The notes beneath the pieces were generated by a model. The model did not search any database. It was not told the DNA's origin and saw nothing but the letters and a program-made list of their open reading frames with translations. A stretch of 64,000 nt of DNA, from positions 34,114 through 98,113 of IMG/VR virus record IMGVR_UViG_3300042393_000544. The stretch is one strand, 5' to 3'. This document shows positions 37,901 through 64,000 of this stretch, one piece after another. The stretch comes from a virus (Duplodnaviria > Caudoviricetes). Every line of letters begins with the position of its first letter. Within the stretch, counting starts at the first letter, position 1. The position numbers were made by a program, and so were the translations under genes.

Positions 37901-40900
37901 AATTGACTATATGCACAATGAGTTGCGTAAGGCAGGGTATAAGACAGAAGAAGTCACGGGAAGGATTGCAACGCTAAATTATGAAAGCGGCATTCCTATT
38001 TTGACTTCACGTATATCCAATATTAACCAACGTGTAAACGCTGTTAGTGCATTTAATAGGGGGCAAAAGAATGGTGGCGTAGATGTCATCATCTTAAATC
38101 AAGCCGGTTCAACAGGCATATCGCTTCATGCGTCTGAAAAATTTAAAGACACACGCAAGCGTCATATGATTATCGTACAGGCTGAAATTAACATTGATAC
38201 CCATATGCAGATGTTGGGTCGCGTTCATCGTACTGGTCAAGTGCAGCCTCCTGCTTATTCTCAAATGATGGCAGATATTCCTGCCGAAATGAGACCGGCG
38301 GCGGTGTTGCTCAAGAAAATGGCATCACTTAATGCGAACACCACAGCTTCGCGTAAGTCTGCTGTAACCGCAGAAGGTGCTGTTGACTTTATGAATGACT
38401 ACGGTGGACAAGTTGCTCAAGAGTATTTGCGTGACAACCCTGAAGTCCTTGAAGCACTTGGCGGCAAGATAGTTGTTGAATTGACGGATGATCCTGCTGA
38501 TGGTGACGAACAAGACATTCGTAAATTGACAGGATATATCCCTATTCTTCCTATTAGTGAGCAGGAAGAAATCTATAAAGACTTGATTGATCGTTACAAC
38601 GATTTAATCGAACGTGAAAACAGCATGGGGTCTAATAAACTTGAGGCCAAAGCGGCAGACCTTGATGCTGAGACTTTATCTTCTGAGCCTATCACTCCAG
38701 ATCGGGGTGATCCGTCTTTGTTTGCTCAACCAGCATACATGGAAAGGGTAGACGTTAAACGCACCGTTAAACCTTTTTCTAAACAAGAAGTTATTGATCT
38801 GACTAAGAAAAACCTTGACGGTAAAACTGCTCAAGAAAAAAACACGGCATTGTTTTCAGGTTTACAGGAAAGAGTTTCCGAGTACACCTATAAGCAAATT
38901 GAAAACTTAAAAGAGAAAGAAGCCGATCCAGTTCGCATCGAAGCGGCTAAAGGACAGATCGGTCTTCAGCTTCAACACGTTAAGACAATCCTAAGTAACT
39001 ACCGTATAGGCACTCCTGTTTCGGTTAAGAATAACCAAGGCGTATTTCTTTACGGCGTTGTAACTGACTTAGAGCAGAAAAACAAAACAAACAATCCTGT
39101 CGCCGGTTCTGACTGGAAGATGCAGATTGCCTTGGCTAACGGGGATGCAAAGTCAATCACAATTAACTTTTCTCAGATTGGTAGCACTTATCAGCTCAAA
39201 GCAGAAAGCTATATCGAATGGTACAACCCTGAAACACAAAAGGGCGAGAACATTCAGTTAGCAGACCTTTTTGATAAAGGCGCAAATGTTCGGCGTGAGA
39301 AACGTTGGATGGTGACTGGCAACATCTTGGCAGGGTTTGCGTCTCCTACCGTGGGCAACTTAGGTCAGATCATGTCGTATACCAAGAGCGATGGTACGAC
39401 TGGTCAAGGCGTTCTAATGCCACGCACGTATGACTTTGAAAAGTCCAAGAAGGATGCGCCAATCCGTTTGACCAAGGCATCTGATGCATTGCGATTTATG
39501 GATGAAGTTGGCGGCGTAGTGACCTCTGCGGACAACGTGTTACGCATTGTCAAAAGCGGTAGGAATTATTTGTTCAGTGTTCCATCTTCAAAAAAGGAAG
39601 GCGGAACTTACCATCAAGATCAGAAATTGACCACTCTGCTGCGTAACGATTTCTACAAAACTGGCAGCATAATGACTGCTAGGGTTTACGATTCGGCAAC
39701 GGCAGAACAAGCGATTGAATATATCTTGAATGATCGTGGCGATACGTTGATTGCTGCGAATCCTAAAGAGAAAGCTCGTGAGATGTTTGCCCCCCCTAAA
39801 GCGACTGTTACGCCAAGCGTAGTGGTCTCTCAGGAAATGAAGGATCGTATTGCCGCAGTTCACAAAGAGAAAGTTGCAGAACACGCTGCCGTTCGTCGCA
39901 ACATTTCCAAGCTGCAAAGAGCGGTGGTCAAGGGTCAGGTCAGCATCGATGTGCAGCGCCAGCTAACCGAGCTTAACCAGTTGGCAAAAGAGTTAACGGA
40001 AGAAAAGAAAGCTACGGCAGAGCGCAAAGACACGCCAGAGAATTTCTTAAACCGAGCTTTGACTGAGTTCAATAAAGGCAACATTAGCAAAGATGTACTG
40101 GACGTTATTCAGTACGTCTATAACCAATCCCCGTCTTTGCTGAATGGTCTTAAACTGTCCGTCACCAAAGGTGGCAAAGAAGCATATAACGCAGCCGGTG
40201 TATTTGATGCTCTGAACAAAATCGTGCGGCTCTACAAAGAGTCCGGTGCGGTTAACGCAGGTACGATTCGCCATGAGTTGATGCACAGTCTTGAGCAGTT
40301 GATGGATCCACAGACCCGTCAGGCTTTGGTCGAGGCATGGAGAGCCAGCCTAGAGAAAGCGATTAGGAAGAACACTGACTCAATTTCTCAGCGTTACTTC
40401 AGTGCGGTTCTTGATTACGTGAACAATCCTACCGAGGCAAACTTTGCTGCGGCAATGGACGTTCTGCCTTCTCAGGATATGTACCAATTCATTAACCCAT
40501 CAGAGTATTGGGCGGTCAATGCCGAGCCTATGTTGGCGGCAAAGATGGGTAATCCTTGGAAGCGTTTTGTCCAGGCTATTAAGCAAGTCATGGAAGGGAT
40601 GAAGAAGATCTTTGGCTTTGATAACCGCTACACGGTTTACAAGACTTTTAATGATTTGATTAAAGGTGAGAAGCCTAGAACGCACAATCAGATGTTGGTC
40701 GATATGATTGGCTCTATGCCACAGAAGACTCAATTTCTGTATGACGTTAAAGACACGGATGACCTGTTAGCCAAACACGCACGAAACGATGCACCTATCC
40801 ATACGTCTAATACGAATATGGATAAGCTCTTGGGTGGCGCTCAAGAAGCCAAGAACATTGCAGCCAAGGCGGTTAAGTCCCCTGTTCTTACGACTAACAA

Positions 40901-52619: not shown

Positions 52620-54101
52620 ATGGAATTAGAACTCAGAGAGCATCAACATGGAGTGGTCAATGCGCTTCGTCAAGGGTTTAAGGACGGACACAGATGCCAG
52701 TTACTCTACGCCCCGACAGGGTTTGGTAAGACCGAAGTAGCAATTTACCTAATGAAAGCCACGGCAGATAACTATAAAAAAGCTGCAATGGTTTTAGACA
52801 GAATAGTCTTGATCGATCAGACCAGTCTGAGACTTACAAAATACTCCATCGATCATGGGGTTTTACAGGCAGATCATTGGAAAAGAGACCCTGCCCAAAG
52901 GATTCAGGTCTGTTCTTCTCAGACAATTGAGCGGCGGCAGAACTTCCCCGATATTGATTTACTGGTCGTGGATGAGTGCCACATCACCCGTCAGCAGATC
53001 ACAGAGGTCATAAAAACGAATCCTAAGATCAAAGTTATTGGGCTAACAGCAACTCCGTTTACTAAAGGGCTTGGAAACATCTATTCCAACGTGGTTTGCG
53101 CCTCGACAACTGAATTTCTAGTCAATAACAAGTGGTTAGCCCCGCTCAGAGTGTTTATTTCAAAAGAAATCGACATGTCAGGAGTCAAAAAGGTAGCAGG
53201 GGAGTGGAGTCCTGACCAAGTTACCAAGCGTGGGATGCAAATCACAGGCGATATTGTTGAGGAATGGATTAAAAAGACCCATGAAATCTTTGGCAAACCA
53301 AGAAAGACAATCGTTTTCTGTGCGGGTGTGGCTCACGGCGAGGATCTAGTCGAGCAGTTTGCCCGTAAAGGATATAACTTTGTTAGCGTGTCCTACAAAG
53401 ATACTGGCGAATACAAACAAGAAGTCATCGATGACTTTGCCAAGCCCGACACGGAGATTCATGGGCTGATCGCTACGGACATTTTGACAAGGGGCTTTGA
53501 CGTACCTGATGTAATGATCGGGGTCAGCGCTCGACCATTTTCTAAGTCGCTTTCGTCACACATTCAGCAACTGGGCAGGGTAATGAGGTCTTGCGAGGGC
53601 AAAGACTTTGCCGTTTGGCTCGACCATTCGGGAAATTATCTCAGATTCAGGGATGACTGGGAGGAAATCTACGCCGAAGGGGTTAAGGATCTTGACGAAA
53701 TGGTCGAAAAGACCAAGAAAGAACCGTCAGAGATTGAAAAGGCAAGTTCTAAGTGTCCTGAGTGCGGGTCTTTGTGGGCAAAGGGCAGTATTTCTTGTGC
53801 GTCATGCGGATATGTCAGGTCAAGGCGCCAGATTGAGGCGGTTGAGGGTGAGTTAATTGAGTTAGGTTTTAACGACAGGTCAGATAAAACTTCAAAGCAG
53901 GACTTTTATTCGGAATTGCTCTACATAGCGAGGGAAAGGGCATACAACCCATACTGGGCAAACAATAAATATCGAGAAAAGTTTGGCGTTTGGCCTAGAG
54001 GAATGGAAGATGTTAAGCGAGTGCCATCAGTTGAGACTCAAAAATGGGTTCGTCACAGAGACATAGCTTGGGCAAAAACACAAAAGAAAATGAGGGCATA
54101 A
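52620..54101 (+). CDS. SF2 helicase (RadD/YejH-like) with zinc finger
   Basis: APTGFGKT, DECH, LTATP, GFDVP, QQLGRVMR, CPEC..CASC. Confidence 0.9.
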   Translation: MELELREHQHGVVNALRQGFKDGHRCQLLYAPTGFGKTEVAIYLMKATADNYKKAAMVLDRIVLIDQTSLRLTKYSIDHGVLQADHWKRDPAQRIQVCSSQTIERRQNFPDIDLLVVDECHITRQQITEVIKTNPKIKVIGLTATPFTKGLGNIYSNVVCASTTEFLVNNKWLAPLRVFISKEIDMSGVKKVAGEWSPDQVTKRGMQITGDIVEEWIKKTHEIFGKPRKTIVFCAGVAHGEDLVEQFARKGYNFVSVSYKDTGEYKQEVIDDFAKPDTEIHGLIATDILTRGFDVPDVMIGVSARPFSKSLSSHIQQLGRVMRSCEGKDFAVWLDHSGNYLRFRDDWEEIYAEGVKDLDEMVEKTKKEPSEIEKASSKCPECGSLWAKGSISCASCGYVRSRRQIEAVEGELIELGFNDRSDKTSKQDFYSELLYIARERAYNPYWANNKYREKFGVWPRGMEDVKRVPSVETQKWVRHRDIAWAKTQKKMRA

Positions 54102-54926
54102 ATGGATTTCGTCAATTTTGCACAGAATCACGGCTTGATCGTGAACCAAATAATTTACGACAAATGGGTGGCAACACCGACACAAGACCATCCACGGTCA
54201 TCGAACGGGAGGTATAAGTTTTTAGGGGATGTTGGTTGGGTCATCAACTGGGCAACAATGGAAAAGCCTGTTACTTGGTTTGCTGATGGTAAGAATGCTT
54301 CGTCAACGGAAGTAAGAAAGCGCATTAATGAATCAAACGCAGAGCGAGACCAACTGGCACAGAAGGCTAGGTCAAAGGCAGAATGGATTTTAGGTCAAAG
54401 CACCCTACAAACGCACCCGTATTTGGAGAAAAAGGGTTTCCCTTTAGAGCAAGGGAATGTTTGGGTCAAAGACGAGCAAAAGATTTTAGTCATTCCCATG
54501 CGGATCGATGGCAAGATAGTGGGATGCCAACTGATCGATCACGAGGGGGTAAAGAAGTTCTTGCATGGTCAGACGAGCAAAGCAGCAGTTTTTGCTATCC
54601 ATGCAAAAGGGACTCCGATATTGTGTGAGGGGTACGCCACTGGTCTGTCCATCAGGAATATTATGAAACAGATGAATCTGCCGTATACGGTCTACATTTG
54701 CTTCAGTGCAAGCAATATGGAGTTCGTAAGTCGGGGCATCGGGCAGGGGATCGTCATCGCCGACAACGATCCCAACGGTGTTGGACAGGCTGCTGCCGAA
54801 AAGACAGGCAAGCCTTATTGGATCTCCCCAACAATCGGGGATGATTTTAACGATTACCATATGAGGGTTGGTAACTTCAAGGCAAGTCAGTCGTTAAAGA
54901 AGCTGCTACTTTCCTTAAAAACTTAG
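54102..54926 (+). CDS. Toprim-domain primase
   Basis: HPYL..KG, CEGYATG, IADND, DFND. Confidence 0.85.
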   Translation: MDFVNFAQNHGLIVNQIIYDKWVATPTQDHPRSSNGRYKFLGDVGWVINWATMEKPVTWFADGKNASSTEVRKRINESNAERDQLAQKARSKAEWILGQSTLQTHPYLEKKGFPLEQGNVWVKDEQKILVIPMRIDGKIVGCQLIDHEGVKKFLHGQTSKAAVFAIHAKGTPILCEGYATGLSIRNIMKQMNLPYTVYICFSASNMEFVSRGIGQGIVIADNDPNGVGQAAAEKTGKPYWISPTIGDDFNDYHMRVGNFKASQSLKKLLLSLKT

Positions 54927-55158
54927 CCTCGACCTGCCTGATCCTTTCGGGGGTCAGGTCATGCTTTTTGCCAACTTCACGCAAAGGTCTGCCAGCAACT
55001 CGCGTTTTCAAAATACTCCAAATTTTGTCTTGCATGACGGGGTTGCTGCGTTTATACATGAGGTCAAAGGCTTCCCTAGTCGGAAAGTCAACCAGTTTGT
55101 AAGGGGCATCGCCCCCCACAAAGACAGGTACTTTGCCATTGCAGTCTTTTAAATTCAT
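54877..55158 (-). CDS. Stand-alone sigma-70 region 4-like HTH protein
   Basis: LREVGKKHDLTPERIRQVEAKFLRK. Confidence 0.75.
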   Translation of the reverse strand: MNLKDCNGKVPVFVGGDAPYKLVDFPTREAFDLMYKRSNPVMQDKIWSILKTRVAGRPLREVGKKHDLTPERIRQVEAKFLRKVAASLTTDLP

Positions 55159-55373
55159 TGCCCACCCCCGTCTAATGCAAAAAGCGCTGTGCCGTTATAA
55201 CCTTTTATCAATTCTTCCCAAATCTTATTTTCTGAGTCGTAGGCAAACACGCCAACTGGTTGTAACTTATCCAACTCATCAGCGGCTTGTCTGAAAGCGC
55301 AGGGATTAAATTCGGCGTTACACCGACCACCACAGGCTTCTTTAAGCAAATGTACGTAATCGTCTTTAGTCAT
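55155..55373 (-). CDS. Hypothetical protein
   Basis: Coupled ORF; C.GRCNAE.NPC. Confidence 0.5.
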   Translation of the reverse strand: MTKDDYVHLLKEACGGRCNAEFNPCAFRQAADELDKLQPVGVFAYDSENKIWEELIKGYNGTALFALDGGGQ

Positions 55374-55705
55374 TTCAAACCCCTTGCTTTGATTGCCGTG
55401 TAGCATTCTGTGTATGTTTTTTGGCGAGAAAATTTATTACCGCCGACAGTCGTACTGTTGTTTTCTACTCTGCCGTACTGGATAGGTTCAAGACACAATG
55501 CAGCACAAATTTCACGTTCATCTTGTCGTGCAGCCTCGACAGCATCACGCATGATCTTTAAATAATCTTCAGCGCAACCTTGACGTTCATCAGCCCGTAC
55601 CATTTCGGCAAAGCGCTCAAGATGATCGTGTCTACATTCCCACTTGTAGTCTGTTACATCATCAAATCCCGCCTGTATAGCAAATTCTTTTAATTTTTCA
55701 TTCAT
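55370..55705 (-). CDS. Hypothetical protein (ERFA..V...ER..CA family)
   Basis: Probable start MNEKLKEFA after GGAG; resembles 49017-49226. Confidence 0.55.
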   Translation of the reverse strand: MNEKLKEFAIQAGFDDVTDYKWECRHDHLERFAEMVRADERQGCAEDYLKIMRDAVEAARQDEREICAALCLEPIQYGRVENNSTTVGGNKFSRQKTYTECYTAIKARGLK

Positions 55706-55880
55706 TCTCAATCTCCTTTGGTTCTGTAATTTCCGTGACGCTATCAAAATCAAAGTGTTCTCTGAAGTCAGCGCCTGTCATGTCGCACAGCCCCTCATCA
55801 GCTAAGTCAATAGCTTCGTCTGCGTCATCGGCTTCAACTTCGATAACTAGGTGGCAGTGGTATCTAATTTCGTATTTCAT
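55698..55880 (-). CDS. Small acidic protein (IEVEAD..DEA motif)
   Basis: AGGAG RBS. Confidence 0.55.
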   Translation of the reverse strand: MKYEIRYHCHLVIEVEADDADEAIDLADEGLCDMTGADFREHFDFDSVTEITEPKEIENE

Positions 55881-56179
55881 GGTTTCTCCTTAAATTCTTC
55901 AGATTCTGTCGTTTTAATTTCAAAATAATAAGAATAATCTAGCGTTTTAGAGTCGTTAGGATCGTCTGGGTTTGCCAATATAAAGACGTTACAAAACACT
56001 TGGCTAGGGTGTTCTTCGTCAATCCAAAAACAAAGCTGATAATTACCCTTGTGAACCCATACGGTTTCGCTGTTTAACTCTGTTTCTACGTCTTTGAGTG
56101 CCTCAATAATTAAATCCATATCGGGCGCATCTGAATCAGTTTTATCAAATTGCGAATCTGTAATTGAATAGGTTTTCAT
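55877..56179 (-). CDS. Hypothetical early protein
   Basis: Coupled ORF; GGAG RBS. Confidence 0.55.
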   Translation of the reverse strand: MKTYSITDSQFDKTDSDAPDMDLIIEALKDVETELNSETVWVHKGNYQLCFWIDEEHPSQVFCNVFILANPDDPNDSKTLDYSYYFEIKTTESEEFKEKP

Positions 56180-56391
56180 CGTATCTCCATGATTCGGTAA
56201 TCGTGCGGGTCGTATTGTTCTTCTACAGCGCCATTAGTGAAAGCCTCATGGTTAGCTGCCAAGAAGTCGGTTAACTCCTCTAAGGCCGCTGTATAAGTCT
56301 TAAAGGTCAACGGGTGGCTTTCACCATTGACCTCCTCAGACCAACAGTTAATCCATCCATCAAGAAATGTATAAGTTTGTACTTCAAACAT
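56176..56391 (-). CDS. Hypothetical early protein
   Basis: FEVQTYT..DGW.NCW; start uncertain. Confidence 0.55.
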   Translation of the reverse strand: MFEVQTYTFLDGWINCWSEEVNGESHPLTFKTYTAALEELTDFLAANHEAFTNGAVEEQYDPHDYRIMEIR

Positions 56392-56671
56392 TTTTAACAC
56401 TCCAAGCCCCGTATTCCTTTGTTAAAGACACGCTCTCTGCCGGACTTTCAACGGTGAGGGGAAAATCGGAGGCTTTTACGATTCGCTCAAGGCGGAACAG
56501 GTAAACCACATTGCCCTTTTTCTGCTTCCACATCTCAAGCATATCGGCGTGGGCTTTCTCTGTACTGTCGGGCTTATTTCCCCAGTAACGACCAAAGCTA
56601 ACCTTATCCCTTTCGTCAGTCGTAAGGATTAGCAACTCATTGACTGCCATATTTTTGTGTAACGTATCCAT
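56384..56671 (-). CDS. Hypothetical early protein
   Basis: ORF within the dense leftward operon. Confidence 0.5.
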   Translation of the reverse strand: MDTLHKNMAVNELLILTTDERDKVSFGRYWGNKPDSTEKAHADMLEMWKQKKGNVVYLFRLERIVKASDFPLTVESPAESVSLTKEYGAWSVKNV

Positions 56672-56817
56672 TATTCTTCATCCTTATCTTCAAATGCATT
56701 CCACAATGATTCGTAGGCGTGATCCCAGTTTGTAAAATCACCAAGAGCTACCGCTGCTGTCGCTTGTTGTTGAATCATTGCATCGTCTGATTCTGATAGG
56801 TCAATCTCGTTGTTCAT
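56671..56817 (-). CDS. Small acidic protein (not in the ORF track)
   Basis: MNNEIDLSESDD...NWDHAYESLW; fills the gap, GAGG RBS. Confidence 0.5.
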   Translation of the reverse strand: MNNEIDLSESDDAMIQQQATAAVALGDFTNWDHAYESLWNAFEDKDEE

Positions 56818-57065
56818 CTCAAATTCCTCAATACAGGTAAGACAGGATTGTCTTCGTTACTGGTAAACAACGATCCACCGTCATTGCCTTCGTCATCGGC
56901 AGACGCATAGATTGCATTGCCATCGTCAAGCACCATGATGACAGGGCGGTGCGACCAACCCATGCCTTCCATTTCCTCTTGGCTCATATAACGCACCTCT
57001 GTGATTGTTCTGCCAAGCAATTGATCCTTGGCAATCTGTAGCCAATATTTGTTTAAATCTTTCAT
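56814..57065 (-). CDS. Hypothetical early protein
   Basis: L.GR.I..VRY...E...MGW...S.DDEGN.GG.L motif. Confidence 0.65.
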   Translation of the reverse strand: MKDLNKYWLQIAKDQLLGRTITEVRYMSQEEMEGMGWSHRPVIMVLDDGNAIYASADDEGNDGGSLFTSNEDNPVLPVLRNLR

Positions 57066-57238
57066 TTTGATCCCTTATAAATTGCATCATTCCAAAGACC
57101 GTACGCACCAAGCATGACAAGATCAGCGCCCTCCCAATTGCCTGTACTAAGCGCCTTACGCAGCGCCTCACGATCTGCCCCATTGGCATTAAAGTTTGCG
57201 AGGTAAGATTCGTAAAATGCTTTGTCATCGTTATCCAT
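57062..57238 (-). CDS. Hypothetical early protein
   Basis: Probable start MDNDD after AAGGA; resembles the C-terminal half of 58226-58549. Confidence 0.5.
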   Translation of the reverse strand: MDNDDKAFYESYLANFNANGADREALRKALSTGNWEGADLVMLGAYGLWNDAIYKGSK

Positions 57239-57392
57239 GATTTTCCTTTTGAAATTGATCCCATAAGTCTTTGTCAATGCTGATCCAAACACGGTTATCA
57301 AACTCATGCATGACCTCTGCATCTTCTAAAATGTCAAAAGCTAATTCGATTTGTTCAAAGTCATTCATGTCTTCCCCTTACCAAAGTGATTG

Positions 57393-57623
57393 TTATTCAA
57401 AACTTAAAAAATTAAACGGCAGCGGCGTTTCTGAAACAACATCACCTTTGCTGTTGTAGACGGTGATGTAAAAATTACAGTCGTCCTCATCAGACTTGAT
57501 ATGAACGTAGCCGCTTTGTTGAACGATTTCGTTGTTCGGTCTGTTCCACATATCAAACGAAACAACGACAGAACCATCGTCAAGTTCATCTTTGTTTAAT
57601 TGAATTTCATTTTCGATAAACAT
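57393..57623 (-). CDS. Hypothetical early protein
   Basis: GAGG RBS; beta-rich. Confidence 0.5.
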   Translation of the reverse strand: MFIENEIQLNKDELDDGSVVVSFDMWNRPNNEIVQQSGYVHIKSDEDDCNFYITVYNSKGDVVSETPLPFNFLSFE

Positions 57624-57790
57624 TATTCTTCCTCAATTTCGTCACAAGGTTCACAAATAAAAATAGGATATTCAGGGCGTACCTCGCAACGGTTGTACAT
57701 CCTGAACCCTTCCATTTCGGCTTCAACATGAGTATCGGCTTCGACCTCAATGTAGGCTTCTGTAGTCATCAAAACATTCCATTTAGGCAT
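57623..57790 (-). CDS. Small acidic protein (IEVEAD motif; not in the ORF track)
   Basis: MPKWNVLMTTEAYIEVEADT...; fills the gap. Confidence 0.45.
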   Translation of the reverse strand: MPKWNVLMTTEAYIEVEADTHVEAEMEGFRMYNRCEVRPEYPIFICEPCDEIEEE

Positions 57791-57795
57791 AGGTC

Positions 57796-58224
57796 TCACC
57801 AACTTGCTTGATATTCAAAATACAGGCGTGGGATTTTCATTAACTCTGTTAACTCGTCCCGTGTCCTAGTCACATCCTCCCAATAATAATCATCAGCTAC
57901 TTCGCTGCCAAAGAAGAACCCTCCAGTTGGCGGCAGCAGCGTTGAATCCTTTTTCTTCAGCACCTCGTCACAGAGATCACGCAGTTTCTCTAGGTCATCA
58001 ATGTCAACATCGTAGGCTTTGCAATCGTCCTCACCGTATTGGACGTTTTTGACAAACCAACCATGAATGGCGTTAGCCTTGCGCCAGTACATACCTCGAA
58101 AGGTTACTTCTGTGACTTCCAAGTCAACGCCCAAAATTTCAGCAATCTGTCTCGCCTTGGCAGCGTCCTCTTCTTCAGAACCCCAAATAAATTTCTTGGC
58201 TCTCAAATACATATCTAAACCCAT
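57796..58224 (-). CDS. Conserved phage protein (MGLDMYL...YWRKAN.IH.WF...Y..SW)
   Basis: Recurrent phage family motif; AAGGAG RBS. Confidence 0.7.
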   Translation of the reverse strand: MGLDMYLRAKKFIWGSEEEDAAKARQIAEILGVDLEVTEVTFRGMYWRKANAIHGWFVKNVQYGEDDCKAYDVDIDDLEKLRDLCDEVLKKKDSTLLPPTGGFFFGSEVADDYYWEDVTRTRDELTELMKIPRLYFEYQASW

Positions 58225-58225
58225 G

Positions 58226-58549
58226 TCATTTCTCCTTAGTTGAGTGTGTCAGCGCCATGTTCCAAAGGTGATAAGCATCAACGATGATCCCATCAATATC
58301 GGGGTGTGGTCTGTCATGTAAAAAATCAAGCAAACACTGTATGTCAAAGCTACTTGCGCTAAAACAGTGTTGATACGCCTCCGCAAATGCTTCGTCATCG
58401 GCAGACAACGGCTTTGCGGTTTCTTCGGGCAGATACCCAGCCAAAGCAACTTCAGGCGTATGGCGAAGTAACTCTTCAATAGACGTTACGTCACCGCTTT
58501 CTACGTCTTTTTTCATTTGCTGCAACACCTTATCAATCAGTTCGTGCAT
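58226..58549 (-). CDS. Hypothetical early protein
   Basis: TAGGAG RBS right after hammerhead 3. Confidence 0.6.
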   Translation of the reverse strand: MHELIDKVLQQMKKDVESGDVTSIEELLRHTPEVALAGYLPEETAKPLSADDEAFAEAYQHCFSASSFDIQCLLDFLHDRPHPDIDGIIVDAYHLWNMALTHSTKEK

Positions 58550-58569
58550 TTCAATACTCCTAGCAGTTA

Positions 58570-58664
58570 ATCAAAGACCAAGTGAGCAATTTGCGGACTA
58601 GCCGTTACGGCGTTTGCGGACTCATGCACACTTGGTTTCGTCCTATCGGACTCTTCAGTTTGAT
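58570..58664 (-). ncRNA. Type I hammerhead ribozyme 3 (extended stem III)
   Basis: Minus strand: ATCAAA CTGAAGA GTCC-GATA-GGAC GAAA CCAAGTG-(insert)-CACTTGG TC TTTGAT. Confidence 0.92.
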
Positions 58665-59020
58665 CCTACGACCTTTTTTAAAATCCAATCATTTAGTGTC
58701 TGATGCGCCAAAACCATATTCTCGTTAATTTTCTCTTCGGTCACGCCCTTGGCAGCGAGGTACTGGCGGTACTCGTACTCAAAGACACAGAGCGGGATTG
58801 CCATGTCACAGTCTTCTTCAAAATTGCCCTGCCACCCTTGGCGGTTGAATGATGCGTCTAGGTATGCCTTTGGCACAAACTCAAGGCGTTGGGCGCTCAG
58901 AATGATCCCGCCGTGGCTTGGCGTGTGTACGATCCAAACCCCTGCCATGATCTCTTCTGCGTCTTCTACCTGACCCCAAAGGGAATAGGTCGGGCGTGGT
59001 GTGTGTGTAAATTCTTGCAT
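58655..59020 (-). CDS. Conserved protein with TPSHGG..LS / EEDC motifs (DUF7007-like)
   Basis: WG......GV..V.TPSHGG..LS and FEEDC; stop codon lies in the hammerhead core. Confidence 0.65.
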   Translation of the reverse strand: MQEFTHTPRPTYSLWGQVEDAEEIMAGVWIVHTPSHGGIILSAQRLEFVPKAYLDASFNRQGWQGNFEEDCDMAIPLCVFEYEYRQYLAAKGVTEEKINENMVLAHQTLNDWILKKVVGSN

Positions 59021-59024
59021 GGTC

Positions 59025-59192
59025 TTACTCCTCGTCAATTGGTTCGTCTACATCGGCTTGTGTGTACCCTGTGAGAATCTCAGGGCGATATTTACTCAAT
59101 ACTTCATTCACGCATTTGTCGCAGACCCTTGCAAGATAAATGCCCTGTGCATCTTTCTCAATCCATGTAGGTTCGTTGTGGTCGCATCTCAT
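59025..59192 (-). CDS. Small Cys-containing protein (not in the ORF track)
   Basis: MRCDH...DAQGIYLARVCDKC...KYRPEIL. Confidence 0.55.
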   Translation of the reverse strand: MRCDHNEPTWIEKDAQGIYLARVCDKCVNEVLSKYRPEILTGYTQADVDEPIDEE

Positions 59193-59401
59193 TTTGTTAA
59201 CTCCGGTTGTTTGTAGGCATCTGCAAAAGCATTACAGTTTTTGTCGTTAAGCCAAACCTCTGCCAAGGCACGAAGCCCTGCGTGAACGGCTGCGAAATCC
59301 TTTTTGGTCTGTTCTGTCTTCTGCCCTTGGTCAATGACATACCAATGAGCGAATGCTATAGCCCCGCTGATAGCATTTAACTGGTCTTTGCTTATGTACA
59401 T
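59189..59401 (-). CDS. Hypothetical early protein
   Basis: GAGG RBS. Confidence 0.5.
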   Translation of the reverse strand: MYISKDQLNAISGAIAFAHWYVIDQGQKTEQTKKDFAAVHAGLRALAEVWLNDKNCNAFADAYKQPELTK

Positions 59402-59558
59402 ATTTCCTCGCTCTCATGGTCAAAATCAACAACATCCAAATCTCTGTCAAGCACGAATGAGTGCCAATGACAAAGAGCATCTTCGTAGGTCACGCATTTG
59501 AATTTAACGTGTCCCTTTGCCCCGTTGTGCAGCCGATAATAAAAGGTGAAGATCATGC

Positions 59559-59765
59559 TCACTCTCCTTTGCCAATAACGTCATTGCTAATGTCATCGAT
59601 CAGTTGATGCAACTCTTCCCAATTGCCATAAGCAATTTTTGTCTTCGTGTCGCTGTCCTTTACTTGATCCCAACCATCGGCATAGACAAAACCGAATTCC
59701 TTTTCATAAAACCAAATTTTGTTGTACAAATGCTCGACTAATTTCTGTCTGCTAAATCTGTTCAT
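59559..59765 (-). CDS. Hypothetical early protein
   Basis: AGGA RBS. Confidence 0.5.
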   Translation of the reverse strand: MNRFSRQKLVEHLYNKIWFYEKEFGFVYADGWDQVKDSDTKTKIAYGNWEELHQLIDDISNDVIGKGE

Positions 59766-59776
59766 TTTTCAATGTC

Positions 59777-60064
59777 CTATTCAATTAACATTACTTTTAT
59801 TTCTTTTTTAATTTCTTCAATATTGTCCGATTCCATAACGTAGTTATCGTCAGACCAGTTGTCATCATTAACGTGATACAAAATGTATTGCTTGCACCCG
59901 CCAGTACGGCGTTTAGGGTTTGCGTATTCGCACCACAGTTTTAAGCCATGCGCCACGTTGACTAGCGATGGACAGGTATCGTTGTGCCACGAATCGTCAA
60001 CGAACCCATCCAATACAGGCAGGGTCGAATCGTAATCAGGAAATTCTTTTAAATAGTGGCTCAT
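59777..60064 (-). CDS. Hypothetical early protein (D.SWHND.CPS motif)
   Basis: EFPDYD...DDSWHNDTCPS. Confidence 0.6.
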   Translation of the reverse strand: MSHYLKEFPDYDSTLPVLDGFVDDSWHNDTCPSLVNVAHGLKLWCEYANPKRRTGGCKQYILYHVNDDNWSDDNYVMESDNIEEIKKEIKVMLIE

Positions 60065-60231
60065 GCTTTCACCACCCATATGTAAAGAAGAGGCTCTTCA
60101 ATGCGCTTAGAATCGATTCTGAGGCCATTTTTACGGTTGTACTTATCAATCCATTGATATGCATCGAACCATGATTCAGCGTCATGCTCTGCAAGCCTTA
60201 TGTCGTTAAATAAAATGACAACGTGCTTCAT
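60061..60231 (-). CDS. Hypothetical early protein
   Basis: ATGA coupling; start MKHVV. Confidence 0.45.
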   Translation of the reverse strand: MKHVVILFNDIRLAEHDAESWFDAYQWIDKYNRKNGLRIDSKRIEEPLLYIWVVKA

Positions 60232-60488
60232 GCTGCACCTATGAGTTTGTTGATACGGTTGCAAGTGTCTGCCAAGTTGTAAGACTGAAACACGATTCCA
60301 CCCGCATATTGCTTGGTATGAAACCGCTTTCCGCCCAGCGCTTTGGCACGAAAAAGAGCAAGGTTATAACGCTGTGTTACGTCAGCGTCACGGTCTGTTG
60401 GCATGGTCAGGTTTGTGTAGTGGCAGACATAGCGAGGGTTGCCATTCCCATCGCTATTGACCCGTGTAAAGGCGGTTATGGCAACCAT
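60228..60488 (-). CDS. Hypothetical early protein
   Basis: D.NGNPRYV.H...GG..F....Y.GGIVFQSYN motif. Confidence 0.65.
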   Translation of the reverse strand: MVAITAFTRVNSDGNGNPRYVCHYTNLTMPTDRDADVTQRYNLALFRAKALGGKRFHTKQYAGGIVFQSYNLADTCNRINKLIGAA

Positions 60489-60490
60489 GA

Positions 60491-60679
60491 TTAAGCCTTG
60501 CCCAACAGGGCAGCGAATTGTTCGTAAACTCGTTGGCGTGAGCCTTTCAGACCTGTCTCTTCCTTGATGATCGTATAGGCGCTTCTGCCGCTGCGGGTCA
60601 TGCCCCGCAACTCTAGCTTTAGCATTTGCAGCAGGGTCAGCAGCCGAAAGTGTTCGATTTGATTTTGTCCAAGCATCAT
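60491..60679 (-). CDS. Hypothetical early protein
   Basis: LKLE..GM..SG.SAY.IIK...GLKG. Confidence 0.55.
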   Translation of the reverse strand: MMLGQNQIEHFRLLTLLQMLKLELRGMTRSGRSAYTIIKEETGLKGSRQRVYEQFAALLGKA

Positions 60680-60681
60680 TT

Positions 60682-61068
60682 TTAATACTCCGAAGTCAAC
60701 ATGAGAATGCCGTTAATGAAGAAGAATTCATACGTACCCGCAGGGCAGTCTGTGAAATCAATCTTGCGCTGTTTAATGCGCTTGCAGTCACCGTCTTCCA
60801 CGTTAATGGTGGCTTTGCCGTTCGCCACAATCAGGTCAATCTTCAGCACATCTTCGGGCAGCGTGGCGTACTCGCTGATGACGATATCCTTGAACCAATG
60901 CGCCCCTGCCTTGTCGCAGAAATATTGAACACCATCGGTATGCAAGACCTTGCTAAACGGGCTTGATTTGTAATAGCCCTGAGTGCCGATAAATTGTGAT
61001 AAATCCATTTCTTTCACTACTCCCATTCCAGTCAGATCGATAGGGTGAATCGTTGGTAAGTTATTCAT
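60682..61068 (-). CDS. DUF6876-like conserved protein
   Basis: L.QF.GT..YY...TDGV.Y...AGA.W..D...TD.P...L.SEY; start after GGAG near 61068. Confidence 0.65.
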   Translation of the reverse strand: MNNLPTIHPIDLTGMGVVKEMDLSQFIGTQGYYKSSPFSKVLHTDGVQYFCDKAGAHWFKDIVISEYATLPEDVLKIDLIVANGKATINVEDGDCKRIKQRKIDFTDCPAGTYEFFFINGILMLTSEY

Positions 61069-61069
61069 T

Positions 61070-61267
61070 TCAGTTTCTCCATTCCAAGTTAAGGGCATCG
61101 TTTGCTTGCGTGAGTTGCTGCGCCTGATCGTCTGTGAGACCGTAGTAATGCGGCTCAACACCGAACCGACCACAGAGGCTGATGTACGGGTTGTAAACTT
61201 CAAAATCGTTAATCTCGTACCCGATAACGGGGCAGTTGTCGGTATTCTTCGTGATGATTAGCTTCAT
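61070..61267 (-). CDS. Hypothetical early protein
   Basis: Start MKLII overlaps the previous stop. Confidence 0.5.
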   Translation of the reverse strand: MKLIITKNTDNCPVIGYEINDFEVYNPYISLCGRFGVEPHYYGLTDDQAQQLTQANDALNLEWRN

Positions 61268-61515
61268 AGCGCCACCCCGATATTCGAGTTGTGAAAATGT
61301 AGTTTTGCTTTCACGCAATCAGAATGCATATCAATAATGTCGCAGCGCATGAAACTTGCTTCTTCTTCAAATTCCCACACACCGCTATCGGTAGGCAGCG
61401 CACCGTAGAAATCATTCAGGGCTTGCTCTTCATCGTCATCAAGACCACTACGGTCATCGTTGACGATTGCCGCAACGAAATGTTGCGAGATTCTGTACTC
61501 GTAATAATCATTCAT
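61264..61515 (-). CDS. Hypothetical early protein
   Basis: AI.N.D.SGL.D.E motif; AAGGAG RBS right after hammerhead 2. Confidence 0.6.
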   Translation of the reverse strand: MNDYYEYRISQHFVAAIVNDDRSGLDDDEEQALNDFYGALPTDSGVWEFEEEASFMRCDIIDMHSDCVKAKLHFHNSNIGVAL

Positions 61516-61533
61516 TGTCATGCTCCTTAGTTT

Positions 61534-61583
61534 GCATAAGACCCCTTGCGGGGTTTCGCCGCATCACGGCTCATCGGTTATGC
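61534..61583 (-). ncRNA. Type I hammerhead ribozyme 2 (CCGAUGA core variant)
   Basis: Minus strand: GCATAA CCGATGA GCCG-TGATG-CGGC GAAA CCCC-GCAA-GGGG TC TTATGC. Confidence 0.85.
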
Positions 61584-61808
61584 TGTTGCTTCTTCCAAGC
61601 TGCTAACGGCTTCTTCTAAGCTGCCTACAGCGCTTTCGAGCGCATCGATAGCTGCCTGTGCAGCCTCGCCCTTGTCGCTGCCTTGGAGGCTCTCAGGCAT
61701 ATTGTCGTAAGCCTCCTCCTCCTCCTCTTTCAGGGTTTCGACCTGTGATTTGAGATCATCGATTTGACCGATCAGTTTGTTGATCGCATCACGGCGTTTG
61801 TTGTTCAT
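61578..61808 (-). CDS. Small acidic helical protein (EE.AYDNMPE.LQ.S.KG family)
   Basis: Recurrent phage motif; stop codon is part of hammerhead stem I. Confidence 0.7.
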   Translation of the reverse strand: MNNKRRDAINKLIGQIDDLKSQVETLKEEEEEAYDNMPESLQGSDKGEAAQAAIDALESAVGSLEEAVSSLEEATA

Positions 61809-61987
61809 GCCAATCCTTTAGCGTGGGGGAAATATTCGTTGACCATCTTGGTTGAGAGAGATTGCAATTGCTTGTTGTTGATCTTGGCAAGGTCGCAGCC
61901 CATAGCCATGATTCGCATTTGTACGTGGAATGCTTGCATTCTGTCGAGAGCGGGAAACCACTTTAGAATTTGTGTTGTCTTGTCCAT
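61805..61987 (-). CDS. Hypothetical early protein
   Basis: GAGG RBS; coupled to the next gene. Confidence 0.45.
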   Translation of the reverse strand: MDKTTQILKWFPALDRMQAFHVQMRIMAMGCDLAKINNKQLQSLSTKMVNEYFPHAKGLA

Positions 61988-61995
61988 GTTGAGCC

Positions 61996-62262
61996 TCAAA
62001 AAAATGTGTTTTCAATATCTGCTAAAGACGGGTACAACTGCAAGCCATTCCAAACCCTGAGCGCATCTTCTAAAGTGTCGAAGCCTTGCTTGTGGTAGCC
62101 CGAACACCAGTCGGGCGTACCCTTCCATTGAATGACGTACTCGTCTTTGTCTTGTTTAAACCAACCGAAGTATTCTGTAAACACGGTTAGCCCTTTCGGG
62201 CGAAAGAATAAATTGCGAGTGTCGTTTGTGCCTTGCACGTAAATCTGATCGATCAATTTCAT
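61996..62262 (-). CDS. Hypothetical early protein
   Basis: ORF within the operon. Confidence 0.5.
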   Translation of the reverse strand: MKLIDQIYVQGTNDTRNLFFRPKGLTVFTEYFGWFKQDKDEYVIQWKGTPDWCSGYHKQGFDTLEDALRVWNGLQLYPSLADIENTFF

Positions 62263-62345
62263 AGCGCACCATCCAAGAGGAAGAAGAGAACAAGAATGAG
62301 ACAGAAAGCGATAGCGTTAAAGCACAGGGTTAACAGGTCATCCAT
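62259..62345 (-). CDS. 28-aa single-TM peptide (not in the ORF track)
   Basis: MDDLLTLCFNAIAFCLILVLFFLLDGAL; GAGGT RBS; ATGA overlap. Confidence 0.5.
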   Translation of the reverse strand: MDDLLTLCFNAIAFCLILVLFFLLDGAL

Positions 62346-62550
62346 GAGTCACCTCAACGGTAGGTAAGCGAAGCGCCAACTGACGGTTACGGCGTGTCTC
62401 AATCGTGACCCAATCAGAGCGAAGAGCGCAGCCCATCCAATCGACAGAATCCTGCCACGACCATGCGTACACGACCTGAGTGTCGTAACCATCCGTAGGC
62501 ATGAAATAAATGCGGTACGGTGCGAACGTGCGGTTAAACCATTTTTTCAT
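62338..62550 (-). CDS. Hypothetical early protein
   Basis: AAGGAG RBS right after hammerhead 1. Confidence 0.6.
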   Translation of the reverse strand: MKKWFNRTFAPYRIYFMPTDGYDTQVVYAWSWQDSVDWMGCALRSDWVTIETRRNRQLALRLPTVEVTHG

Positions 62551-62569
62551 TTTGCTACTCCTTTTGTTT

Positions 62570-62620
62570 GCATAAGACCGCCGTAGCGGTTTCGGGGAAT
62601 CACCCCATCATCAGTTATGC
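62570..62620 (-). ncRNA. Type I hammerhead ribozyme 1
   Basis: Minus strand: GCATAA CTGATGA T GGGG-TGATT-CCCC GAAA CCGC-TACG-GCGG TC TTATGC. Confidence 0.92.
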
Positions 62621-62815
62621 TGTTATGCGGAAATCTAAGTTATCCCATTGGCGCTCTTGCGCTTGTGCGACACGCAACTTGCAGCCTTTCAGGGTATCGG
62701 CTTGCACGGTCTCGTTTCCTACGGTTGCTACCCAAACAGAGATGATCTTGCCGCTGCGAGTGGCAATCCGTTTCTGTGAATAAATCGTCATTGTTGTGGC
62801 TCTGTTCATTTTCAT
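62615..62815 (-). CDS. Small basic early protein
   Basis: TAGGAG RBS; exact start uncertain; stop codon is part of hammerhead stem I. Confidence 0.55.
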   Translation of the reverse strand: MKMNRATTMTIYSQKRIATRSGKIISVWVATVGNETVQADTLKGCKLRVAQAQERQWDNLDFRITA

Positions 62816-62826
62816 ACTCCTAGTAG

Positions 62827-62842
62827 CGGGGCTTTCGCCCCT
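62827..62842 (-). other. GNRA-capped intergenic hairpin
   Basis: GGGGC-GAAA-GCCCC between the first gene's stop and the next RBS. Confidence 0.55.
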
Positions 62843-62849
62843 GTGGGTT

Positions 62850-63113
62850 TTACTGTGTGTGAGCCTCTCTGATTTCACGGGCAATATCCATTAGCTTTAA
62901 GTAATCATCGCCGCACAACATACGACCATCGTATTCATAGTCGTAGCCGTACATAACATCACGTTGATTTAACTCACGGTTGTAGAGAATCCCCTCTATG
63001 TGGCGTGCATGGTCTACGAAGAGAATGCGGGTATCGTCTATGCGAACAGCGGTGATAGGCTGACCCTCTGCGGTGTATGCACGCCCTGTGTTGAAGTGAA
63101 TCGTTTGGTTCAT
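62850..63113 (-). CDS. First gene of the leftward operon, hypothetical
   Basis: FNTGR.Y...GQ.I...F.D..R.I.G; TAGGAG RBS. Confidence 0.6.
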   Translation of the reverse strand: MNQTIHFNTGRAYTAEGQPITAVRIDDTRILFVDHARHIEGILYNRELNQRDVMYGYDYEYDGRMLCGDDYLKLMDIAREIREAHTQ

Positions 63114-63164
63114 TTTGCTACTCCTAGTAGGTGGGTTGGTGTTCGATGCAACTGGTACTAAAGG

Positions 63165-63196
63165 GAATTATATAGGAAAAACTTGATTTGCAAGCG
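63165..63196 (-). promoter_or_regulatory. Sigma70-like promoter of the leftward (putative early) operon
   Basis: Minus strand TTGCAA...TATAAT (spacer slightly short) with an AT-rich upstream tract. Confidence 0.6.
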
Positions 63197-63422
63197 TTTT
63201 ATTGAAATTTATTGAAAATATTTTTATTGCCTATGAATCAAGGGTTTAGGCGTGAATCCACCAGCGCATCGATTGCCGCTGCCGAAGTGAGTCTCGCAGC
63301 GAGAATAGGCTCTGCCGCCGGAGATAGCGCCCGAAGAGAGCGAAGCGAAACAGCCCGTCTTGTTATGCTTCTCAAGCTGTCCTACAATCGCAGCTAAGAG
63401 CAACATACTCAACGGATACCGT

Positions 63423-64000
63423 ATGAAACGACTAACGAAAGCTGAGATAGCACAAGGCATGAAGACAGTACCGATAGAGACCATCATCTTAGGCAGCCAA
63501 AGCAAGCAAGGTATCAAACTCACCAAGAGACAAAAGGAATTCGCAGAGCAAGTGGTAAGCACAGGCAACAAGAGCGAAGCCTACCGAAGAAGTTACAACC
63601 ACACAGGCAAGAGGACAACCGCAGCGAGGAATGCACAGACCATCTCAAAATCTACCAACGTGCAAACATACATCCAAGCCCTGACACTAGCGAAAGAGAG
63701 CGAGGAATATCTTTTACCCCAACGTCTCAGAGCTATGGCTATCCATAAGCTATCCACAATGGCACTGGATGACACGATGCCCCCCGCACAGCAACTCAAG
63801 GCGTTAGAACTCGTTGGCAAGATGACTGAGGTGGCATTGTTCTCTGAACGCAGAGAGATCGTACACAGTCTCGACTCGTCATCACTCAAGGCGAAGCTGA
63901 TGGATGCGGTACAGCTCGCAATCGCCAGCAGTAAAAGTATTCGGACAACAACCAAGCGGACAGCACAACAGCTACTCGCTGAGATCGATGAACCAACTGA
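63423..64000 (+). CDS. terS: Terminase small subunit (runs off the window end)
   Basis: LTKRQKEFAEQVV..GNKSEAYRRSY and LKALELVGK motifs; no stop before 64000. Confidence 0.75.
   Translation, partial: MKRLTKAEIAQGMKTVPIETIILGSQSKQGIKLTKRQKEFAEQVVSTGNKSEAYRRSYNHTGKRTTAARNAQTISKSTNVQTYIQALTLAKESEEYLLPQRLRAMAIHKLSTMALDDTMPPAQQLKALELVGKMTEVALFSERREIVHSLDSSSLKAKLMDAVQLAIASSKSIRTTTKRTAQQLLAEIDEPT

Follow-up and report, generated by a model that had tools for sequence, protein, structure and literature searches.

Does a phage divide its own polycistronic message into gene-sized pieces by means of ribozymes placed between its genes? This question is raised by a 64,000-nucleotide (nt) stretch of viral DNA, referred to here as the window, which comprises bases 34114-98113 of the 98,113-base IMG/VR virus record IMGVR_UViG_3300042393_000544. 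In the last 9 kb of the window, the initial annotation had noticed three complete type I hammerhead ribozymes on the minus strand and suggested that they segment a leftward operon. In our opinion, the identity of these elements as hammerheads, situated where a stop codon meets a ribosome-binding site (RBS) in a single array of co-oriented genes, is well supported. We further consider it likely that all three are genuine type I hammerheads of a common phage module and that they cut the transcript into four RNAs whose decay and translation initiation are independent of each other. The basis for this is motif, fold, statistics, family membership, junction geometry and the conservation of the third site; cleavage in vivo and its effect we infer.

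Reading of the sequence and an independently written structural descriptor place the three elements exactly where they had been annotated. A span of 4.05 kb on the coding strand of the phage genes contains all of them:

62570-62620, minus strand: hammerhead 1, type I (sequence reading, descriptor, fold, covariance models R1 and R2)
61534-61583, minus strand: hammerhead 2, type I (sequence reading, descriptor, fold, covariance models R1 and R2)
58570-58664, minus strand: hammerhead 3, type I (sequence reading, descriptor, fold, partial Rfam match, orthologue in the related locus L157)

At site 1, stem I is GCAUAA/UUAUGC and the core is CUGAUGA; one additional U (62607) separates A9 from stem II. 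Stem II (GGGG/CCCC, loop UGAUU) is followed by GAAA, and stem III reads (A)CCGC/GCGG(U) with the loop UACG, C17 being at 62576. Site 2 has an identical stem I (GCAUAA/UUAUGC), the core CCGAUGA with a C at position 4 (61576), which makes it a U4C variant, stem II GCCG/CGGC, and stem III (A)CCCC/GGGG(U) with the loop GCAA and C17 at 61540. At site 3, stem I is AUCAAA/UUUGAU, extended by a G.U pair (58665/58569), and the core is CUGAAGA; stem II is GUCC/GGAC with the loop GAUA, then GAAA, and stem III has 8 pairs around a 44-nt insert, with C17 at 58576. In the descriptor, stems I/II/III comprise 6/4/5, 6/5/5 and 7/4/8 pairs at sites 1, 2 and 3. The topology is the same everywhere: three helices surround the core, stems II and III are closed by loops and stem I is open. 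The core consensus to which we compared these sequences is C3 U4 G5 A6 N7 G8 A9 ... G12 A13 A14 A15.1-U16.1 H17 (Methods of PMC3088659). It is complete at sites 1 and 3, with the one inserted U of site 1 falling between A9 and 10.1. The core-adjacent pairs 10.1-11.1, 1.1-2.1 and 15.1-16.1 are G-C, A-U and A-U at all three sites, which at site 1 requires U62607 to be bulged.

Since hammerhead cores are short, and since the curated threshold of Rfam is unreached in the window, one may ask whether the three motifs are simply chance matches. The strict descriptor (stems of at least 6/4/5 pairs) found nothing in 200 dinucleotide-preserving shuffles, against the three matches observed, and even a loose version gave a mean of only 0.015 matches per shuffle in 200 such shuffles. 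Further, each motif occupies a gene junction on the coding strand, with the same spacing in all three cases; two of them reach E-values of 1e-14 to 1e-19 against an independent family model, and the third is conserved in L157. We regard the chance explanation as effectively refuted, with a probability that is close to nil. The independent models are two. R1 is a covariance model built from 22 equal-length sequences of other phage contigs, none from the window, and R2 is a second covariance model of 68 sequences, again with no window sequence. R1 assigns 67.8 bits (E 5e-19) to site 2 and 55.1 bits (E 6e-15) to site 1; the corresponding R2 scores are 59.2 and 54.8 bits. As isolated motifs, all three sites have the three-way hammerhead junction as their predicted minimum-energy fold.

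No further strong hammerhead was found by the descriptor and R2 in the whole 98,113-base record, where R2 reports nothing else at E < 0.8 except a partial match to site 3. Besides the three strong matches, the descriptor gave one weak fourth match in the window, at 56345-56266 (minus strand), with the core CUGAGGA and stems of 6/3/3 pairs including wobbles. It lies inside an open reading frame (ORF) and received no model score at E up to 5-10, and we rejected it; it is probably a chance match, even though the loose descriptor expects only 0.015 per shuffle. Two plus-strand matches of a permissive descriptor (33835-33976 and 53253-53350) were likewise rejected, having non-canonical first core bases and lying within ORFs.

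The elements are members of a large family. When stem I and the core of sites 1 and 2 were used as a search pattern, 35 IMG/VR stretches were retrieved, and in 34 of these (L022, described below, was left out) the descriptor recognized 108 hammerheads, 74 of them distinct, at 1 to 7 per locus, with stem I sequences that vary with compensation. Stem covariation in relatives had been put forward by the initial annotation as a test of its idea, and at the level of the family it is present. In an alignment of 22 sequences, both partners vary in 11 of 15 pairs, and the covariation score of 0.527 (0.168 in shuffles) was reached by none of 500 shuffles; this sample was preselected for perfect pairing, which makes the percentage of paired positions meaningless and leaves the variety of pair types informative. 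At orthologous junctions in other contigs the ribozyme is kept and stem I varies, being GCACAA, GCGCAA or GUACAU before a gene that starts with 'atggcacgattaatta'.

A narrower, differently seeded pattern matched at least 120 IMG/VR stretches. The matches listed for it include 109 new loci, from which 177 distinct contexts were taken, and among these listed matches stem I is exactly 6 base pairs (bp) long in 167 of the 177 contexts, an A stands just outside stem I in 166 on one side and in 163 on the other, and the core is CUGANGA in 176, with C4 in the remaining one. U4C also occurs in 4 other family sequences beyond site 2, and loop II is a conserved U-rich pentaloop across the family. Together with the fixed length and A/A flanks of stem I, seen in about 94% of the 177 contexts, this loop would fit a docking site, at which loop II and stem I may make the tertiary contact that allows fast cleavage at low Mg. 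A stop codon lies between -12 and +12 of the core in 83 of 86 family contexts. The leader is 20-30 nt long in 56 of the 86; in this count, the start was wrongly placed at an AUG or UUG within stem I for 9 rows, and for 6 no start codon was identified. Such regularity of stop and leader geometry argues for selection on the arrangement. The module as a whole, stop codon, hammerhead with 6-bp stem I and A/A closure, then RBS, is very common in IMG/VR, where it occurs in more than 120 contigs with up to 7 copies per locus.

The same geometry is seen at the three junctions in the window. It had been claimed that each hammerhead overlaps the stop codon of the gene upstream, and the sequence and the ORF map bear this out at every site: UAA 62617-62615 and UAA 61580-61578 are in stem I of sites 1 and 2, and UGA 58657-58655 is in the core of site 3. 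Sites 1 and 2 are each preceded by a gene that ends in ...ACA GCA UAA (62615-62626 and 61578-61589, minus strand), thus the sequence common to the two modules extends into the last codons of unrelated proteins. Cuts are predicted between 62576 and 62575, between 61540 and 61539 and between 58576 and 58575. Also as annotated, these positions precede the next AUG by 25, 24 and 26 nt and lie immediately 5' of an AGGAG-type site. For site 2 the 24 nt are counted to AUG 61515; an in-frame AUG at 61521 is only 18 nt from the cut. The predicted new 5' ends, read from the sequence, are as follows:

62548-62575, minus strand: predicted 5' end after cut 1, a 25-nt leader UUAUGCAAACAAAAGGAGUAGCAAA, then AUG 62550
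61513-61539, minus strand: predicted leader after cut 2, 24 nt to AUG 61515, with the Shine-Dalgarno (SD) sequence AAGGAG at 61528-61523
58547-58575, minus strand: predicted leader after cut 3, 26 nt UUUGAUUAACUGCUAGGAGUAUUGAA, then AUG 58549

The SD sites are AAGGAG, AAGGAG and UAGGAG at sites 1, 2 and 3, each 7-8 nt 5' of the AUG. Their predicted accessibility rises from 0.59 to 0.70, from 0.83 to 0.95 and from 0.32 to 0.65 upon cutting, thus the gain from cleavage would be only modest.

Site 3 requires a separate discussion, because of the following feature:

58585-58628, minus strand: 44-nt insert in stem III of hammerhead 3 (sequence reading)

In this insert two exact copies of AGUCCGCAAA (58622-58613 and 58599-58590) flank a hairpin, GCCG-UAA-CGGC (58611-58601), and the string GAGUCCG repeats the A9/stem II 5' strand of the ribozyme itself. 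A role as a protein-binding or misfolding switch is possible. Site 3 is similar to the AUCUAA/GUAA subclass, in which long stem III inserts occur in some members too; a search pattern for long-stem-III relatives of site 3 retrieved just two elements, both of them unrelated and set aside. More was learned from the gene upstream, which encodes a DUF7007 protein. One metagenome scan with this protein returned 7 loci, including L156, which is near-identical and has hammerhead 3, and L157, in which the protein is 88% identical. Of 97 bases in the hammerhead 3 orthologue of L157, 3 are different, compared with 42 of 355 in the gene that precedes it (Fisher p 0.012). The three changes are confined to the insert; the core, stems I and II and the outer part of stem III are unchanged. 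Within the insert, both AGUCCGCAAA repeats are kept exactly, and the hairpin has a U to C change in its loop and one G-C pair turned into G.U. L157 is the sole diverged orthologue of the window's own sites, and it has no compensatory change in helices I, II and outer III. Descriptor, fold, likeness to the subclass and this orthologue together support the assignment of site 3 as a hammerhead.

Conservation of position in related phages, also named in the initial annotation as something to check, does not extend to more distant relatives. Site 3 is kept in L156 and L157, but it is absent from 5 of the 7 DUF7007 loci, those at 64-66% identity, which, like L037, have an overlapping stop and start (ACAACATGA) and no ribozyme. 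Further, L157 retains the leader of site 3 with a single difference in 19 bases, yet a different gene follows. The 107-amino-acid (aa) gene 58226-58549 is missing from L157, and the leader is joined directly to a homologue of gene 57796-58224; hence the module stays while the gene behind it changes.

The gene swap invites the idea that the module is chiefly a portable boundary of cassettes, serving the gain, loss and exchange of small accessory genes, with the ribozymes hitch-hiking. In addition to L157, one can point to the absence of the module from more distant relatives of the upstream gene, and to the flanking genes, which differ among family members. However, copies within one genome are identical over a run of about 14 nt at most, which is short for homologous recombination, and the strict conservation of catalytic nucleotides and the compensatory changes in the stems would be left unexplained. 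We therefore find it distinctly unlikely that exchange is the chief role of the module. It should be added that this idea is compatible with the one we prefer, self-cleavage between genes, and does not exclude it.

Several results weigh against our reading, and it is fair to give them together. The ribozyme-free DUF7007 loci and the preselection of the covariation sample are two of them. The suggested check with the Rfam hammerhead models was negative: there is no match at the gathering score within the window, and with E-values up to 10 the only match is a partial one of Hammerhead_1 to site 3 (21.1 bits, where 34 are required; E 0.15), sites 1 and 2 going unreported even at this level. R1 and R2 match site 3 only partially, with 11 bits (E 0.9) and 15 bits (E 0.09), because these models cannot span the 44-nt insert. 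Site 2 departs from the consensus core at position 4, with C for U, and at this position alone, all other core bases being present; U4C is reported to 'considerably decrease' activity in vitro (PMC3088659). The insertion after A9 seen at site 1 is found in only 4 of the 177 family contexts described above. When the sites are folded in a context of -60/+33, the predicted minimum-energy structure retains the full hammerhead at site 1 only. In longer context, the complete hammerhead fold has a predicted share of 0.22-0.29 at site 1 and 0.15-0.42 at site 3, and of only 0.015-0.07 at site 2. In the three cultured phages that encode a homologue of this region's 76-aa gene, no hammerhead was found at E 0.01 or better within 1.5 kb. 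Finally, no benefit of cutting, be it stability or insulation, is described as established for any phage hammerhead cluster in the review PMC6765202.

Among 43 descriptor matches from 8 loci, 2 do pass the gathering score of Hammerhead_1, with 36.1 and 35.7 bits, which ties the family to RF00163 and explains why Rfam misses most of its members. RF00163 (type I, clan CL00010) shares topology and core with the elements discussed here; the window's own sites differ in falling below its threshold.

Taken together, such observations allow for another view, according to which the motifs derive from hammerheads and act mainly as structured junction elements, cleavage being weak, conditional or lost at one or more of the sites. 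Such elements could stop ribosomes in multiple frames, cap the upstream RNA against 3' exonucleases or set the spacing of the RBS. The U4C change and low predicted occupancy of site 2, together with the inserted U of site 1, fit this view, and the conserved repeat-hairpin-repeat insert of site 3 could bind a factor. It also fits that all three reading frames are closed by 44 of 77 family ribozymes, compared with 13% of shuffles, and that regulated or slow phage variants were raised as a possibility in Perreault 2011 (PMC3088659). On the contrary, all catalytic positions are canonical at the three sites except for U4 of site 2, and across the family the core is near-invariant (CUGANGA in 176 of 177 of the listed contexts), which would be needless for a mere hairpin spacer. 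Moreover, U4C variants retain biological function in a viroid (PMC3088659). In our opinion a mainly structural role is unlikely, and we keep to the interpretation that the three elements are self-cleaving ribozymes.

The identical stem I of sites 1 and 2 gives rise to a more exotic proposal. The 1,036-nt RNA released between them could rebuild a hybrid hammerhead and be re-ligated to a circle, or else the outer pieces could be joined so that genes 62550-61578 are skipped, the ligation being carried out by the ribozyme itself or by a host RtcB-type ligase. The two sites do share stem I and the first four bases of the leader, with stems II and III differing, and neighbouring pairs that have the same stem I are also seen in L011, L014, L019 and L032; the possibility is also mentioned in Perreault 2011 (PMC3088659). 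However, in the same paper spliced or circular products were sought and none were detected. Adjacency of identical pairs in 4 of 5 lineages, against about 2 expected, is not significant and is a rough count, and GCAUAA was the seed of the search, so its frequency in the sample is biased. We judge this proposal very improbable. There is also a composite of several ideas, in which stop codon, ribozyme and RBS form a portable cassette that is both a cut and a seam for gene exchange, the insert of site 3 makes its cut conditional on a factor, and the 1,036-nt segment becomes a circular, exonuclease-proof mRNA. That all of this would be true jointly strikes us as a long shot.

How, then, would self-cleavage between the genes operate? 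The leftward array would be transcribed as a single RNA, and each ribozyme would cut itself after C17. Given the type I topology, nearly the whole ribozyme would stay on the upstream product, which would carry its own stop codon and the folded ribozyme and end in a 2',3'-cyclic phosphate; since the stop codon is kept, this product would not become a non-stop message. The downstream product would begin with a 5'-OH, followed by six bases of stem I and about 18 bases of A-rich leader, predicted to be largely unstructured. The outcome would be four RNA segments with mutually independent decay and translation initiation. A ribosome that terminates at a stop codon inside stem I or the core would have to unfold the ribozyme, and therefore cleavage and translation of the upstream gene could interfere with each other. 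Sites 1 and 3 should be more active than site 2, where cleavage may be slow; site 2 is expected to be the weakest because of U4C, with its lower reported activity in vitro, and because of the low predicted occupancy of its fold. As to the fate of the ends, a 5'-OH could, as the initial annotation suggested, resist RNase E and insulate the RBS. A 5'-monophosphate end acts as a stimulus for RNase E; in Bacillus, the 5'-OH product left by the glmS ribozyme is a substrate of RNase J1. Which of these enzymes is relevant depends on the host.

There are some hints, from sequence relationships, of a Gram-negative host. The nearest cultured relatives of the phage helicase infect Proteobacteria (33-40% identity). 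The exact stem I/core pattern was found in 23 genome records (L163-L185), 20 of which are from Legionella or other Legionellaceae, 2 are other gammaproteobacterial metagenome-assembled genomes (MAGs) and 1 is a Burkholderiales MAG. The last of these (L177) is the only one of the 23 with a phage-type module, its leader being 24 nt long. The Legionellaceae chromosomal copies have an identical stem I (GCAUAA/UUAUGC) and core, but they differ in a longer stem II, a short stem III and a conserved GCCAC...GUGGC hairpin in place of RBS and start, and by sequence they form a distinct chromosomal subfamily. A hammerhead located before ardA in three Legionella strains is described in PMC3088659. Among phage contigs, L014 (~9928-9890, minus strand), L019 (~3339-3380, plus strand) and L032 (~2151-2190, plus strand) each have a GCAUAA hammerhead followed by a conserved stem-loop of the form AACAUCG-AGCCAGUGA...GCAGAA-CGAUGU and no RBS; no Rfam family reaches its gathering score at these stem-loops. 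Searches of GenBank phages with blastn gave, for the 4.7-kb region, only a 100-nt match inside the 76-aa gene (3 records), and for the module of site 1 no match. When the proteins just downstream of the sites were used to look for relatives in IMG/VR, those of sites 1 and 2 led only to an identical contig and that of site 3 to no relative.

The arrangement as such has precedents. Prophage hammerheads are often multiple, bordering individual genes or small gene blocks, and the processing of long phage transcripts into gene-length mRNAs has been proposed (Perreault 2011, PMC3088659). According to the same source, three triple hammerhead arrangements in prophage contexts cleaved during transcription in vitro, one of them also in E. 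coli. The clusters described there are alike in having several hammerheads within a few kb, on the coding strand and flanking small genes, with core variants including U4C. They differ in belonging to prophages of Clostridium scindens, Azorhizobium caulinodans and Agrobacterium tumefaciens, whereas here we deal with an uncultured 98-kb phage record and with type I only. It is thus a reasonable inference that the polycistronic transcript is cut into segments, in agreement with the published hypothesis and with in vitro data on other phage clusters. For HHphage of the haloviruses HF1/HF2, a mapped transcript 5' end lies within 3 nt of the predicted cut, but the virus is archaeal, the core is a variant dependent on high salt, there is just one site, and the distance to the start is 13 nt instead of 24-26 (PMC3088659). 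In Desulfovibrio vulgaris, cutting by three type II hammerheads in the vicinity of phage-like genes was detected in a method paper of 2021 (PMC8782182). In a 2026 paper, self-cleavage in the 5' untranslated region enables translation initiation in RNA viruses of fungi and plants (PMC13725137), which is a eukaryotic parallel only. Later reviews take up the processing hypothesis again and still call the function of bacterial and phage hammerheads open (PMC6765202, PMC6155905).

Two other systems are analogous in their effect. The early mRNA of T7 is cut between cistrons by host RNase III, a protein enzyme that leaves a 5'-phosphate, and RiboJ is an insulator engineered from a satellite-RNA hammerhead, with an added hairpin, that cuts just upstream of the RBS. 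Both give the message a defined 5' end that is independent of the sequence upstream; neither is a family to which the elements of the window could belong.

It remains to describe the surroundings of the ribozymes, which consist of two features:

55155-63113, minus strand: leftward array of about 29 small ORFs, mostly abutting or overlapping (ORF map)
63114-63359, no strand assigned: AT-rich intergenic region from which the leftward array and a rightward terminase-small-like ORF diverge (read from sequence, ORF context from L022)

On one side the array is flanked by rightward replication genes, a helicase (52620-54101) and a Toprim protein (54102-54926), and on the other by the rightward terminase-small-like ORF, which starts at 63360 and is truncated by the end of the record. 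Only 3 of 20 array proteins pass Pfam cut-offs (DUF6876, Phage_TreK and DUF7007). Between 54800 and 64000 no terminator-like site was found on the minus strand, all 7 of those detected being on the plus strand; transcription of the array as one long leftward RNA is therefore plausible. The intergenic region contains, on the minus strand at 63193-63167, TTGCAA and TATAAT separated by 15 nt; the promoter scan, which requires a spacing of 16-18 nt, made no call there. The three predicted cuts would define segments of about 0.6 kb, 1,036 nt, 2,964 nt and at least 3.4 kb, the first figure assuming an unmapped transcript start near 63160. Calling this transcript 'early', as was done in the initial annotation, rests only on context, namely the approximately 29 small ORFs, one Phage_TreK match and the divergence from the terminase-like gene.

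In the ribozyme-free junction of the first and second array genes there is a hairpin, GGGGC-GAAA-GCCCC (62828-62841, minus strand), between the stop codon of the first gene (62852-62850) and the RBS of the second (AUG 62815). Its plus-strand reading was called terminator-like, and the hairpin may serve as a signal for processing or for termination. An ORF of 28 codons with many hydrophobic residues (62258-62344, minus strand), located between genes 62338-62550 and 61996-62262, may encode a small membrane peptide. The rightward block includes two very large ORFs, one of 3,877 aa (window 31980-43613, plus strand) and one of 2,070 aa (genome 30974-37186, plus strand). Finally, the IMG/VR contig L022 (8,384 bases) is 100% identical to the final 3,590 bases of the record (window 60411-64000) and extends 4.8 kb further, with the terminase-small-like ORF, a Terminase_6C protein and an 828-aa ORF. 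This extension matches nothing at the start of the record; hence the record breaks off within a gene and is open at this end, even though its completeness is estimated at 100%.

We see the locus as a clean new example of an arrangement described since 2011, with nothing new in kind. A few descriptive points go slightly beyond the literature cited here, and we do not claim that they are unpublished: the 6-bp stem I with its A/A closure, the geometry with the stop codon inside the ribozyme, and the conserved insert of site 3 together with the gene swap behind it. The value of the locus, in our opinion, is that of a compact test case. Three junctions of one operon bring together a canonical core with an extra U, a U4C variant and a site with a long insert, and L157, a close relative that differs in the gene behind site 3, adds to this value. 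The regularities of the family, a 6-bp stem I with A/A closure, a stop codon in or just before the ribozyme and a leader of about 22-28 nt, can be tested in reporters.

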